Origin: Escherichia coli
GTDB taxonomy: Bacteria > Pseudomonadota > Gammaproteobacteria > Enterobacterales > Enterobacteriaceae
Length of the DNA stretch: 64,000 nucleotides
NCBI RefSeq assembly: GCF_003334315.1
Contig: NZ_QOWR01000023.1
Strand: one strand, 5' to 3'
Below the pieces are notes generated by a model. It had not been told where the DNA came from and searched no databases. It saw nothing but the letters and a program-made list of their open reading frames with translations. Position numbers and translations under genes: made by a program. Shown one piece after another: positions 4,059 through 18,232 of the stretch (the first letter of the stretch is position 1; each line of letters begins with the position of its first letter).

Positions 4059-5264
4059 ATGTTTCATCTCGATACTTTAGCAACGCTTGTTGCCGCAACG
4101 CTGACGTTGCTGCTCGGGCGTAAGTTGGTCCATTCCGTCTCCTTTTTGAAGAAATACACCATACCGGAACCTGTTGCGGGTGGTTTGTTGGTGGCGCTGG
4201 CGCTACTAGTACTGAAAAAAAGCATGGGCTGGGAAGTCAACTTTGATATGTCCCTGCGCGATCCGTTAATGCTGGCTTTCTTCGCCACCATTGGCCTGAA
4301 CGCCAACATTGCCAGTTTGCGTGCCGGTGGGCGTGTGGTTGGCATCTTCTTGATTGTGGTTGTTGGTCTGTTGGTGATGCAAAATGCCATTGGCATTGGT
4401 ATGGCTAGCTTGTTAGGGCTTGATCCGCTGATGGGGCTGTTGGCCGGTTCTATTACGCTTTCCGGCGGTCACGGTACGGGCGCTGCGTGGAGTAAATTGT
4501 TCATTGAACGTTATGGCTTCACCAATGCGACGGAAGTGGCGATGGCCTGTGCAACGTTCGGTCTGGTGCTGGGCGGCTTGATTGGCGGTCCGGTGGCGCG
4601 CTATCTGGTGAAACACTCCACCACGCCGAACGGTATTCCGGATGACCAGGAAGTCCCGACGGCGTTTGAAAAGCCGGATGTGGGACGCATGATCACCTCG
4701 TTGGTGCTGATTGAAACTATCGCGCTGATTGCTATCTGCCTGACGGTGGGGAAAATTGTTGCGCAACTTTTGGCTGGCACTGCTTTTGAACTGCCGACCT
4801 TCGTCTGTGTACTGTTTGTTGGCGTGATTCTGAGCAACGGTCTGTCAATAATGGGCTTTTACCGCGTCTTTGAGCGTGCGGTATCCGTGCTGGGTAACGT
4901 AAGCTTGTCGTTGTTCCTGGCGATGGCGTTGATGGGGCTGAAACTGTGGGAGCTGGCTTCGCTGGCGCTGCCGATGCTGGCGATTCTGGTGGTACAGACC
5001 ATCTTCATGGCGTTGTATGCCATCTTCGTTACCTGGCGCATGATGGGCAAAAACTACGATGCGGCAGTGCTGGCTGCGGGTCACTGTGGTTTTGGCCTCG
5101 GTGCAACGCCAACGGCAATCGCCAACATGCAGGCGATCACTGAACGCTTTGGCCCGTCGCACATGGCGTTTTTGGTGGTGCCGATGGTCGGTGCGTTCTT
5201 TATCGATATCGTCAATGCGCTGGTAATTAAGTTGTATTTGATGTTGCCGATTTTTGCCGGTTAA
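4059..5264 (+). CDS. gltS: sodium/glutamate symporter
   Basis: 401-aa hydrophobic ORF, MFHLDTLATLVAATLTLLLGRK N-terminus. Confidence 0.9.
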   Translation: MFHLDTLATLVAATLTLLLGRKLVHSVSFLKKYTIPEPVAGGLLVALALLVLKKSMGWEVNFDMSLRDPLMLAFFATIGLNANIASLRAGGRVVGIFLIVVVGLLVMQNAIGIGMASLLGLDPLMGLLAGSITLSGGHGTGAAWSKLFIERYGFTNATEVAMACATFGLVLGGLIGGPVARYLVKHSTTPNGIPDDQEVPTAFEKPDVGRMITSLVLIETIALIAICLTVGKIVAQLLAGTAFELPTFVCVLFVGVILSNGLSIMGFYRVFERAVSVLGNVSLSLFLAMALMGLKLWELASLALPMLAILVVQTIFMALYAIFVTWRMMGKNYDAAVLAAGHCGFGLGATPTAIANMQAITERFGPSHMAFLVVPMVGAFFIDIVNALVIKLYLMLPIFAG

Positions 5265-5307
5265 CCGATGAAGCGGCGGTAGAAGTGCCGCCGCAACAAA
5301 GACAAAT

Positions 5308-5339
5308 GCCTGATACGCTTCGCTTATCAAGCCTGCGTA
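5308..5339. repeat. degenerate REP-like palindromic element downstream of gltS
   Basis: gcctgatacgcttcgcttatcaagcctgcgta resembles the REP consensus GCCTGATGCG...CTTATCAGGCCTAC. Confidence 0.35.
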
Positions 5340-5432
5340 TTGATTCATAATTTATTGAATTTGTAGGGTGATGAATCGCATCCGGCAGGAAGGTAGGGTA
5401 ACCTGAAATGGCGGTCTTCTCACTGCCGCCTT

Positions 5433-7514
5433 TTACGCATTCGAGTAACGTTCCGTCTCCGGCATCCAGCGTTCTATCAGGGCTTTTGCCTGTTGTGGGT
5501 AACGTTCGTGAATATGGCGTGCCAGGCGCTGAACTTCCGGGATCATCGCCTGATCGCGCAGTAAATCCGCCACTTTAAATTCAGCATTACCCGTCTGACG
5601 CGTGCCTAACAATTCGCCAGGGCCGCGAATCTCCAGATCTTTTTGCGCAATCACAAAACCGTCGTTACTGTCGCGCAGCACTTGCAGGCGAATTTGCGCC
5701 GTTTTAGAAAGCGGCGTTTTGTAGAGCAGCACGCAGTGAGAAGCCACCGCGCCACGACCTACGCGCCCGCGCAGCTGGTGTAACTGCGCCAGACCCAGAC
5801 GCTCCGGGTTTTCGATAATCATCAGACTGGCGTTAGGCACATCAACGCCGACTTCAATAACGGTTGTGGCAACCAGCAGGTGTAGCTCACCTTGTTTAAA
5901 CGACGCCATCACCGCCTGTTTCTCGGCAGGTTTCATCCGCCCGTGTACCAGGCCAACGTTCAACTCTGGTAGCGCCAGTTTCAACTCTTCCCAGGTAGCT
6001 TCCGCCGCCTGCGCTTCCAGCAATTCCGACTCTTCAATCAACGTACAAACCCAGTATGCCTGACGACCTTCAGTTATGCAGGCGTGGTGCACGCGGTCAA
6101 TGATGTCGGTACGGCGGGTATCAGGAATAGCGACCGTAGTCACTGGCGTGCGGCCTGGCGGCAGCTCATCTATCACCGAGGTATCGAGATCGGCATACGC
6201 AGTCATTGCCAGCGTGCGGGGGATCGGCGTGGCGGTCATGATCAACTGATGCGGATGGAAGCCCTGCTGCTGGCCTTTCTCCCACAATGCCAGACGCTGA
6301 TGCACGCCAAAACGATGCTGTTCGTCGATAATCACCAGCGCCAGGCCGTTAAACTGCACCTGTTCCTGGAAGATGGCGTGTGTACCGACAATCATCTGCA
6401 CCTGACCGCTGGCGATGGCTTCCTGCTGTGCCAGCCGTGCTTTACCTTTCTGCTTACCGGCGAGCCAGCCCACTTCGATACCGAGCGGTGCAAACCAGTT
6501 GCGGAAGTTATTGGCGTGCTGCTCGGCGAGTAATTCGGTTGGTGCCATCAATGCTACCTGTTTGCCGTGGGCAATCGCACGCAACGCGGCGAGGGCGGCG
6601 ACCAGCGTTTTACCGGAACCTACATCGCCCTGCACCAGACGCATCATCGGCACATCCAGCGCCATATCGCGCTCGATCTCCGCCACTACGCGTGCCTGTG
6701 CGCCCGTTGGCTTGAACGGTAAGGCGGCGAGGAGTTTATTTTTCAGCGTGTCATTGGCGCTCAGCGGCTGGGCATGAAAACGCTGTGCTCCGGCACGTAA
6801 GGCTAACATGCTGAGGTTGTGCGCCAGCAGTTCTTCCAGAATCAGACGACGTTGCGCCGGATGCTGCCCGGTTTCCAGATCGCTAAGCTGTAGCGTCGGT
6901 GGCGGGCGGTGCAAAGTGCGCAACGCTTCCGGTAGCGTCATCATTCCTTGTGACAGTTCCGGCGGCAGGAGTTCTTCAATGGCGCAGGTGTCGAGCAGAT
7001 CCAGCGCCTGGTCGGTTAATTTACGCAGCGTGGCCTGCTTTACGCCTTCCGTTGTTGGATAAACCGGCGTGAGCGTTTCCTGTAATTCTGGCGTGCTGAG
7101 ATCGCCCTGCACGCGGTATTCCGGGTGGATCATCTCCGCACCATATTTACCGCGCTTTGCTTCGCCATAAGCCAGTACACGGCGGCCCGCCGCCAGGCTA
7201 TTTTTCATTGCCGCGCTGAAATTGAAAAAGCGCATGGTGAGGATGCCGGAACCGTCGCTGATCTGGCAGGTCATCATCCGCCGACCGCCGAAGGAGATAT
7301 TGCAGTTCAGCACTTCGCCTTCCACCGTGGCATAAACGCCCGGCAGTAGTTCTCCGATGGGGTAGAGATGGGTGCGATCTTCGTAGCGCAGGGGAAGGTG
7401 TAAGAGTAGATCCTGCACGGTATGCAGGTTGATTTTCGCCAGTTTGTTACTAAGTGCTGCGCCAACGCCCGTTAGGGAACTGAGTGGGACAGCATCTAAC
7501 AGGCGACCTTTCAT
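5433..7514 (-). CDS. recG: ATP-dependent DNA helicase RecG
   Basis: ORF track 5433..7547; start trimmed to MKGRLLDAVPLSSLTGVG (693 aa); helicase motifs GSGKT, DEQHRFG. Confidence 0.95.
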   Translation of the reverse strand: MKGRLLDAVPLSSLTGVGAALSNKLAKINLHTVQDLLLHLPLRYEDRTHLYPIGELLPGVYATVEGEVLNCNISFGGRRMMTCQISDGSGILTMRFFNFSAAMKNSLAAGRRVLAYGEAKRGKYGAEMIHPEYRVQGDLSTPELQETLTPVYPTTEGVKQATLRKLTDQALDLLDTCAIEELLPPELSQGMMTLPEALRTLHRPPPTLQLSDLETGQHPAQRRLILEELLAHNLSMLALRAGAQRFHAQPLSANDTLKNKLLAALPFKPTGAQARVVAEIERDMALDVPMMRLVQGDVGSGKTLVAALAALRAIAHGKQVALMAPTELLAEQHANNFRNWFAPLGIEVGWLAGKQKGKARLAQQEAIASGQVQMIVGTHAIFQEQVQFNGLALVIIDEQHRFGVHQRLALWEKGQQQGFHPHQLIMTATPIPRTLAMTAYADLDTSVIDELPPGRTPVTTVAIPDTRRTDIIDRVHHACITEGRQAYWVCTLIEESELLEAQAAEATWEELKLALPELNVGLVHGRMKPAEKQAVMASFKQGELHLLVATTVIEVGVDVPNASLMIIENPERLGLAQLHQLRGRVGRGAVASHCVLLYKTPLSKTAQIRLQVLRDSNDGFVIAQKDLEIRGPGELLGTRQTGNAEFKVADLLRDQAMIPEVQRLARHIHERYPQQAKALIERWMPETERYSNA

Positions 7515-15185: not shown

Positions 15186-16049
15186 TTACTCAATATTCTG
15201 AATCTGCTCGCGCATCTGCTCAATCAACACTTTCAGCTCGATGGCGGAGTTTGTCACTTCGGCATTGATAGATTTCGACGCAAGAGTGTTCGACTCGCGG
15301 TTGAATTCCTGCATCATAAAGTCCAGACGACGACCAACGGCTTCTTTTTTCTTCAGAATGTTGTAGGTCTCTTTGACATGCGCTTCCAGGCGGTCCAGTT
15401 CTTCGGCAACGTCAATTCGTTGTGCCAGCAGAACCAACTCCTGCTCCAGACGGTTGTTTTCCAACTGAACCTGAGCATCTTCCAGCTTCGCGACCAGACG
15501 CTCACGCTGCCATTGCAGGATTTCCGGCATATGGGCGCGGACTTTGACCACTTCGGCGGTGACGCCTTCCAGACGCTGCTCGATCAATGCTTTCAGTGCC
15601 TGACCTTCGGTTTCGCGCGCGACAATAAAGTCGTCCAGCGTACCATCCAGCGCCGCGAGAATTTCAGCGGCAATGGCGTCGAGATCCTGCTCCTGGGCTG
15701 CCATCACGCCCGGCCAGCGCAGAATATCAACCGGGTTGATTTCCCCTTCGTCACTCTGCATTTTTACCCAGTTCGCGGCAGTTACCAGCTGTTTAGCCAG
15801 TTTTTCATTGAGGATCAGCTCACCTTGTGCGCTAACATCTGGCTCATAGCGCAGGGTACATTCCACTTTACCGCGCGTCAGGCGAGAACGAATACGCTCG
15901 CGAACGACAGGTTCAAGGCTACGGAACTGCTCCGGCAGACGAAAGTAAGTTTCCAGATAACGCTGGTTTACCGAGCGCATTTCCCAGGTTGCGCTCCCCC
16001 ATTCACCCTTGATTTCACGCCGGGCGTAGGCGGTCATACTGCGGATCAT
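15186..16049 (-). CDS. yicC: YicC-family stress-induced protein (UPF0701)
   Basis: 287-aa ORF MIRSMTAYARREIKGEWGSATWEMRSVN. Confidence 0.92.
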   Translation of the reverse strand: MIRSMTAYARREIKGEWGSATWEMRSVNQRYLETYFRLPEQFRSLEPVVRERIRSRLTRGKVECTLRYEPDVSAQGELILNEKLAKQLVTAANWVKMQSDEGEINPVDILRWPGVMAAQEQDLDAIAAEILAALDGTLDDFIVARETEGQALKALIEQRLEGVTAEVVKVRAHMPEILQWQRERLVAKLEDAQVQLENNRLEQELVLLAQRIDVAEELDRLEAHVKETYNILKKKEAVGRRLDFMMQEFNRESNTLASKSINAEVTNSAIELKVLIEQMREQIQNIE

Positions 16050-16175
16050 AGACGTTCCTGTTTATAAAAGGAGAGGTGGAAGGATTATAGCCATCGATGC
16101 CTTGTCAGGATAGGAATAACCGCCGGAAGTCCGTATAATGCGCAGCCACATTTGTTTCAAGCCGGAGATTTCAAT

Positions 16176-16892
16176 ATGCGTCCAGCAGGCCGTAGCAATA
16201 ATCAGGTGCGTCCCGTTACCCTGACTCGTAACTATACAAAACATGCAGAAGGCTCGGTGCTGGTCGAATTTGGCGATACCAAAGTGTTGTGTACCGCCTC
16301 TATTGAAGAAGGCGTGCCGCGCTTCCTGAAAGGTCAGGGCCAGGGCTGGATCACCGCAGAGTACGGCATGCTGCCACGTTCTACCCACACCCGTAACGCT
16401 CGTGAAGCGGCGAAAGGTAAGCAGAGTGGACGCACAATGGAAATCCAGCGTCTGATCGCCCGTGCTCTTCGCGCGGCAGTAGATTTGAAAGCGCTGGGTG
16501 AGTTCACCATTACGCTGGACTGCGACGTGCTTCAGGCTGATGGTGGCACGCGTACCGCGTCGATTACGGGTGCCTGCGTGGCGCTGGCAGATGCGCTACA
16601 GAAGCTGGTGGAAAACGGCAAGCTGAAAACCAACCCGATGAAAGGGATGGTAGCCGCAGTTTCTGTCGGTATTGTAAACGGTGAAGCAATTTGCGATCTG
16701 GAATACGTTGAAGACTCAGCCGCAGAGACCGACATGAACGTAGTGATGACCGAAGACGGGCGCATCATTGAAGTGCAGGGGACGGCAGAAGGCGAGCCGT
16801 TCACCCATGAAGAGCTACTCACCTTGTTGGCGCTGGCCCGAGGGGGAATCGAATCCATTGTAGCGACGCAGAAGGCGGCGCTGGCAAACTGA
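16176..16892 (+). CDS. rph: ribonuclease PH, full length (238 aa)
   Basis: ORF track 16152..16892; start trimmed to [14 protein letters not shown]; reads through to ...[16 protein letters not shown] without a frameshift. Confidence 0.93.
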
Positions 16893-16898
16893 TTTTTA

Positions 16899-16925
16899 AG
16901 GCGACTGATGAGTCGCCTTTTTTTT
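16899..16925 (+). terminator. rph-pyrE intercistronic attenuator/terminator hairpin
   Basis: Stem gcgact / agtcgcc with loop gatg followed by a run of 8 T, between the rph stop and the pyrE start. Confidence 0.8.
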
Positions 16926-16957
16926 GTCTGTAGAAAAGTAAGATGAGGAGCGAAGGC

Positions 16958-17599
16958 ATGAAACCATATCAGCGCCAGTTTATTGAATTTGCGCTTAGCA
17001 AGCAGGTGTTAAAGTTTGGCGAGTTTACGCTGAAATCCGGGCGCAAAAGCCCCTATTTCTTCAACGCCGGGCTGTTTAATACCGGGCGCGATCTGGCACT
17101 GTTAGGCCGTTTTTACGCTGAAGCGTTGGTGGATTCCGGCATTGAGTTCGATCTGCTGTTTGGCCCTGCTTACAAAGGGATCCCGATTGCCACCACAACC
17201 GCCGTGGCGTTGGCGGAGCATCATGACTTGGACCTGCCGTACTGCTTTAACCGCAAAGAGGCAAAAGACCACGGTGAAGGCGGCAATCTGGTTGGTAGCG
17301 CGTTACAAGGACGCGTAATGCTGGTAGATGATGTGATCACCGCCGGAACGGCGATTCGCGAATCGATGGAGATTATTCAGGCTAATGGCGCGACGCTTGC
17401 TGGCGTATTGATTTCGCTTGATCGTCAGGAACGGGGGCGCGGCGAGATTTCGGCGATTCAGGAAGTTGAGCGTGATTACAACTGCAAAGTGATCTCTATC
17501 ATCACCCTGAAAGATCTGATTGCCTATCTGGAAGAGAAGCCGGAAATGGCGGAACATCTGGCGGCGGTTAAGGCCTATCGCGAAGAGTTTGGCGTTTAA
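16958..17599 (+). CDS. pyrE: orotate phosphoribosyltransferase
   Basis: ORF track 16943..17599; start trimmed to [29 protein letters not shown] (213 aa). Confidence 0.95.
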
Positions 17600-17606
17600 A
17601 GAAACT

Positions 17607-17630
17607 CGCCGGATGAAAAGTCATCCGGCG
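17607..17630. terminator. perfect 10-bp inverted repeat between convergent pyrE and slmA (probable bidirectional terminator)
   Basis: cgccggatga-aaag-tcatccggcg. Confidence 0.5.
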
Positions 17631-17635
17631 TCATA

Positions 17636-18232
17636 TTACTGCAACTGCGCGGCAATTAGCGGCCAGCGGGCGTCAAAATCATCCGTCGGGCGGTATTTAA
17701 ATTCGCTGCGGACAAAACGTGACAGCATACCTTCACAGAAGGCCAGGATCTGGCTTGCCAGCAGGGTTTCATCGGTGGTGTAACCTTCACCCTCACGCAT
17801 TCTCTTTTCACGCAATACCTGACGCAGCTGCGCTTCAATACGCTCGAACAGCTGGTTGATACGCCCTTGCAGGCGATCCTGTTCAAACATCAGCGCATGA
17901 CCAGTGAGGATGCGGGTCAGGCCAGGATTACGCTCACCAAAACCGAGAAGCAGCAACACAATCAGACGCAGGCGCGCTGTGGTGTCTTTCTCATCTTTCA
18001 GAATCAGGTTGATGCGAGTAATCAGGCTATCTTCGATAAACTCAATCAGGCTATCGAACATGCGGGTCTTACTGGGGAAGTGGCGATACAGTGCCGCTTC
18101 GGAAACGCCGACAGAGGCGGCCAGTTTTGCCGTCGTGATACGTTGGCTTCCATCGCTGGATTCCAGCATCAGCGCCAGAGACTGAAGTATTTCCTCGCGA
18201 CGGTTCCTTTTCGCAGTTTGTTTTTCTGCCAT
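17636..18232 (-). CDS. slmA: nucleoid occlusion factor SlmA (TetR family)
   Basis: ORF track 17636..18274; start trimmed to [24 protein letters not shown] (198 aa). Confidence 0.93.

Follow-up and report, generated by a model that had tools for sequence, protein, structure and literature searches.

The closest described system is the attenuator of pyrE in Escherichia coli, whose model is credited to Bonekamp 1984 and Jensen 1993, as cited in PMC2784333 and PMC11148124. As these two papers summarize it, the efficiency of the pyrE terminator is set by how closely the ribosome that finishes rph trails RNA polymerase, and an E. coli attenuator identical to the one considered here is read through more often when UTP is low. 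The rph-1 allele has an early stop that uncouples the ribosome from the polymerase, and pyrE is under-expressed. Evolution experiments select compensating deletions that return the stop codon toward the loop (PMC2784333, PMC11148124). The first appearance of rph-1 is in W1485 (PMC11148124, PMC5379014).

Under this model, low UTP would slow RNA polymerase, and the ribosome at the end of rph would be close behind it. A ribosome at or near the rph stop would cover the 5′ arm of the hairpin, termination would fail, and pyrE would be transcribed. At high UTP, the polymerase would outpace the ribosome, the hairpin would form, and transcription would end. In rph-1 strains, the ribosome would come off 34 nt before the hairpin, so that termination would always be efficient and pyrE would be under-expressed.

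The window analyzed here is the whole stretch of 64,000 nucleotides of E. coli DNA that carries the locus. Its rph and pyrE genes almost certainly form the wild-type bicistronic operon of a natural non-K-12 E. coli, with the terminator between them serving as the pyrE attenuator. This arrangement is the ancestral, textbook form of the great majority of E. coli, and it is already known. The features of the locus are collected in Table 1.

Table 1. Features of the rph-pyrE locus, with positions counted from the first letter of the window.
Feature	Position	Strand	Evidence
GGAG, Shine-Dalgarno-like, 8 nt 5′ of the rph ATG	16164..16167	+	direct sequence reading
rph, ribonuclease PH, full length (238 aa + TGA)	16176..16892	+	ORF list and translation
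A instead of G, codon GGT>AGT, RNase PH Gly84Ser	16425..16425	+	comparison with best-matching E. coli genomes
G5 run, all five G kept; loss of one G is the K-12 rph-1 frameshift	16842..16846	+	MG1655 alignment
Out-of-frame TAG, unused in the window; terminates rph in rph-1 strains, 34 nt ahead of the hairpin	16861..16863	+	simulated deletion
Native rph stop TGA, 5 nt ahead of the first base of the hairpin	16890..16892	+	
pyrE attenuator hairpin, 9-bp stem (5 G-C pairs), loop GATG	16898..16919	+	fold, terminator scan
T8 tract of the intrinsic terminator, first two T paired in the stem	16918..16925	+	
pyrE, orotate phosphoribosyltransferase, 213 aa	16958..17599	+	NCBIfam TIGR00336

The product of rph is a typical RNase PH. 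Its ATG at 16176 is the RefSeq start in orthologues of identical length, and its C-terminus agrees with enterobacterial orthologues in both sequence and length. The protein scores 381.1 bits on NCBIfam TIGR01966 (RNasePH), for which the curated equivalog cut-off is 141.5 bits, with residues 2-236 of the 238 covered. Pfam PF01138 and PF03725 are both recorded for a protein identical to the RNase PH of the window. Full-length alignments, with E values from 3e-103 to 2e-81, are obtained with 1OYP (B. subtilis), 3B4T (M. tuberculosis), and the top PDB match 1R6L (P. aeruginosa RNase PH, E = 3e-103). The GRT and GGTRTA motifs of RNase PH are common to the window protein and all three of these. PyrE scores 240.6 bits on TIGR00336 (cut-off 106.8), and the protein is identical in the window, MG1655, and strain 214-4.

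A TATAAT is visible 5′ of rph at about 16134-16139. The promoter scan missed the rph promoter, and its single match lies inside pyrE. The 90%-identity protein cluster that holds the window RNase PH (10,487 members) also includes 213-aa PyrE proteins. The two proteins are unrelated, and their co-clustering is probably a database artifact, in which fused or mis-called rph-pyrE products act as the bridge.

The rph-1 site separates the window from the K-12 reference. The MG1655 sequence used is NC_000913.3, 3814000-3818500, in which rph is annotated as "truncated RNase PH". In a direct alignment, the window has GAGGGGGAA with its run of five G where MG1655 has four. The aligned site reads CCCGAGGGGGAATCG in the window and CCCGAGGGGAATCG in MG1655, which is short of one G. 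The MG1655 product is 228 aa long and ends in ARGESNPL followed by the stop codon. When one G of the window run is deleted in silico, the frame closes with the same ARGESNPL ending at the TAG that is otherwise unused. The four G of MG1655 against the five of the window, together with a simulated deletion that gives the MG1655 ending, indicate that the window does not carry rph-1. The allele is recognized by a 1-bp deletion within the G run around codon 223 and by the premature stop after GESNPL, and the window has neither.

The preliminary description of this DNA had read rph as intact, with 238 aa, and unlike the K-12 allele. The ORF translation and the MG1655 alignment bear out the intact frame, and the comparison with K-12 is verified against NC_000913.3, with the K-12 frameshift absent from the window. 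The span of 16176-16928 given there takes in the rph CDS plus the terminator, and the observation is correct for that span.

The rph-1 sequence is uncommon in the species. The exact rph-1 70-mer is found in 168 of 5,425 complete E. coli genomes, a count that includes only exact G4 matches, so that the other 5,257 genomes, at 95-99%, mix G5 alleles with those that have any other SNP. The exact rph-1 sequence is thus absent from at least 97% of complete E. coli genomes. Among the 60 carriers listed, almost all are K-12 laboratory derivatives, judged by strain name or else by coordinates and genome size, including MG1655, W3110, BW25113, J53, and HMS174.

A G4 run like that of rph-1 is also seen in strain 2015C-3101 (NZ_CP027221.1), a clinical non-K-12 isolate from human stool with a genome of 5.3 Mb. 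Its rph is a frameshifted pseudogene in RefSeq (244-959 of the retrieved NZ_CP027221.1 segment). The G4 in this strain is either an independent homopolymer slip or a homopolymer sequencing error.

The intact frame by itself does not identify the strain background. JM83, JM109, XL1-Blue, and RR1 are rph+ K-12 strains (PMC11148124, PMC5379014), and an intact rph therefore excludes only the K-12 lines derived from W1485. The existence of such strains leaves room for an rph+ K-12 derivative as the source of the window, either an rph-repaired MG1655 or a K-12 line outside the W1485 descent. The probability of this is close to nil. Over 3.8 kb, the window and MG1655 share 98.4% identity (56 mismatches, 3 gaps), and RNase PH alone has four amino-acid differences from MG1655 ahead of the frameshift point. 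K-12 lines differ from one another by only hundreds of SNVs genome-wide (PMC5379014). The divergence from MG1655 is far above these inter-line differences, and K-12 is thus excluded altogether. The 6.7-kb locus retrieved from draft contig QOWR01000023.1 (GCA_003334315.1), which encodes the exact RNase PH protein, is contained in the window without a single difference. Over 24 kb, the complete genomes most similar to the window belong to small E. coli of commensal or animal type, for example 13C1065T, cM2a, and CP53. The earlier statement that the sequence is neither MG1655 nor W3110 holds, as both of these carry G4 and the window diverges from MG1655 to the extent given above.

The intergenic region between rph and pyrE contains a hairpin followed by a U-tract in the RNA, and the stop codon of the upstream gene lies near the 5′ arm. 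The hairpin has the sequence AAGGCGACT-GATG-AGTCGCCTT. The 51-nt RNA folds at -16.9 kcal/mol, compared to a mean of -7.4 for shuffled sequences (z = -4.4), and 0 of 200 shuffles are as good. The terminator scan picks up the same hairpin. The attenuator hairpin with T8 that had been described after rph is therefore present, according to both the fold energy and the scan. MG1655 has the same hairpin and T8, base for base in the alignment, and so their presence does not tell the two alleles apart.

The Rfam scan of 15900-17800 (E <= 1) gave no curated family for the attenuator. The sole match, to RyhB, lies over the terminator hairpin and scores 24.5 bits, where the gathering score is 55. This sub-threshold match was rejected as a chance terminator-like resemblance.

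The position of the rph stop relative to the hairpin differs between the alleles and is kept among genera. The distance is 5 nt in the window and 34 nt in rph-1. The hairpin starts 4-6 nt past the rph stop in E. coli, Salmonella, Klebsiella, Enterobacter, and Scandinavium, and T8 is present in all five genera, beginning 24-26 nt after the stop. The length of the rph-pyrE intergenic region ranges from 63 to 110 nt across them. The stem is near-invariant; apart from the loops, variation is confined to one terminal pair and an additional G-C pair. With the stem almost invariant, covariation gives the structure essentially no support beyond the conservation of the sequence. The constant stop-to-hairpin spacing, despite the variable intergenic length, fits selection on the spacing. 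This geometry, kept in all five genera, is what the published translation-coupled, UTP-sensitive attenuation model predicts.

The anatomy of the element is that of any intrinsic terminator, and none of the Rfam families treats it as a regulatory leader. Both points would equally suit a hairpin and T8 that merely end a monocistronic rph transcript, with pyrE having its own promoter and the rph frame being irrelevant to pyrE. Such an arrangement is extremely improbable. No sigma-70-like site is found in the 32 nt of 16926-16957 by a crude consensus scan, which also missed the rph promoter. The spacing between stop and hairpin is held at 4-6 nt in the five genera, whereas the spacer downstream is variable. 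Published genetics also stands against a separate pyrE promoter, as both rph-1 and the deletions that reposition the stop alter pyrE-dependent growth (PMC2784333).

The bicistronic operon with an attenuator remains the preferred reading. A ribosome extends about 12-15 nt past the A-site codon. Given this general footprint size, about 5-8 nt at the start of the 5′ arm of the hairpin would lie under a ribosome that sits at the TGA. Since both the rph frame and the geometry are native in the window, attenuation should be normally regulated. In the source strain, the hairpin would be expected to be occluded by the ribosome in a UTP-dependent manner, with a corresponding level of pyrE. The preliminary description had predicted normal pyrE expression for this strain, and by analogy with the published mechanism this prediction appears sound.

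The "intact" rph of the window is not the wild-type sequence throughout, as it contains the rare missense change G84S. Over 16100-17000, the window departs from the three best-matching genomes compared at a single base, the A at 16425. Of the complete E. coli genomes, 4,827 could be matched to the 71-mer with 16425A, and none of them has it exactly; another 599 returned no megablast match to the 71-mer, owing to the word-size limit, and for these 16425A is not strictly excluded. A protein identical to the G84S form is already in NCBI, for example OWD55032.1. It occurs on three synonymous nucleotide backgrounds, in a few draft and metagenome contigs. G84 is located two residues before Arg86 of the GRT motif, which we take to be the phosphate-binding segment of RNase PH.

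The effect of this change could be an altered RNase PH activity. All five of the other enterobacterial RNase PH sequences compared have Gly84, and this, along with the lack of the 16425A 71-mer among the complete E. coli genomes that matched, would agree with an rph that is in frame yet impaired. The strain would then be a partial rph mutant, with lowered RNase PH activity and normal pyrE. This is unlikely. At the aligned position, serine is native in B. subtilis (1OYP) and M. tuberculosis (3B4T), while P. aeruginosa and the common E. coli form have glycine. The family score of 381 bits is unaffected, and the presence of the same protein on at least three synonymous backgrounds indicates that it has repeatedly arisen or spread and has not been purged. 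It is highly unlikely that G84S is a change, selected recurrently in some natural lineages of E. coli, by which the activity of RNase PH or its handling of substrates is altered. Judging from the residues found in related proteins, G84S is probably a harmless, tolerated rare polymorphism, with serine being native elsewhere. Attenuation senses the translation of the rph 3′ end and not the activity of the enzyme, and G84S therefore cannot affect it.

On the upstream side, rph-pyrE is flanked by dinD and yicC, and on the downstream side by slmA, dut, and coaBC, all on the - strand. A 10-bp G+C-rich hairpin is present at 17607-17630, between the convergent genes pyrE, which ends at 17599, and slmA, which ends at about 17636. 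Its appearance is that of a terminator that is shared or bidirectional. In GCA_031832915.1, an E. coli with the G84S protein, a 319-aa ORF with PF00078 (RVT_1) is located between pyrE and slmA (4722-5681 of the retrieved segment). The window has only a short spacer at this position. The RVT_1 ORF may represent either a group II intron or an insertion of the retron type. On the other side of the locus, strain 214-4 (NZ_CP025840.1, 639-1898 of the retrieved segment) has a tyrosine-type integrase and a hypothetical gene adjoining yicC, in the place that dinD occupies in the window and in most strains. This points to a hotspot for integration immediately upstream of the rph region.

The pyrimidine-limitation artifact of MG1655 and W3110 should not apply to the source strain. 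A normal rph allele is expected outside K-12, and rph-1 is a textbook caveat on laboratory "wild types". The importance of the locus is accordingly slight and mostly a matter of bookkeeping, namely the record of a natural non-K-12 E. coli with the ancestral rph-pyrE.

When compared to the known rph-pyrE attenuator of E. coli (Poulsen/Bonekamp/Jensen, 1984-1993), the window has the same genes, in the same order, with the same intergenic sequence. The neighbors yicC, dinD, slmA, dut, and coaBC are also those of the known locus. The hairpin, T8, and pyrE leader equal those of MG1655 base for base, and the regulatory element is without differences; the window differs from the known operon by the rare G84S in the rph coding sequence. 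The rph-1 strains (MG1655, W3110, and the W1485 lineage) share both the locus and the attenuator with the window. In contrast, rph-1 has G4, a product of 228 aa, and a stop 34 nt before the hairpin, while the window has G5, a product of 238 aa, and a stop 5 nt before it.
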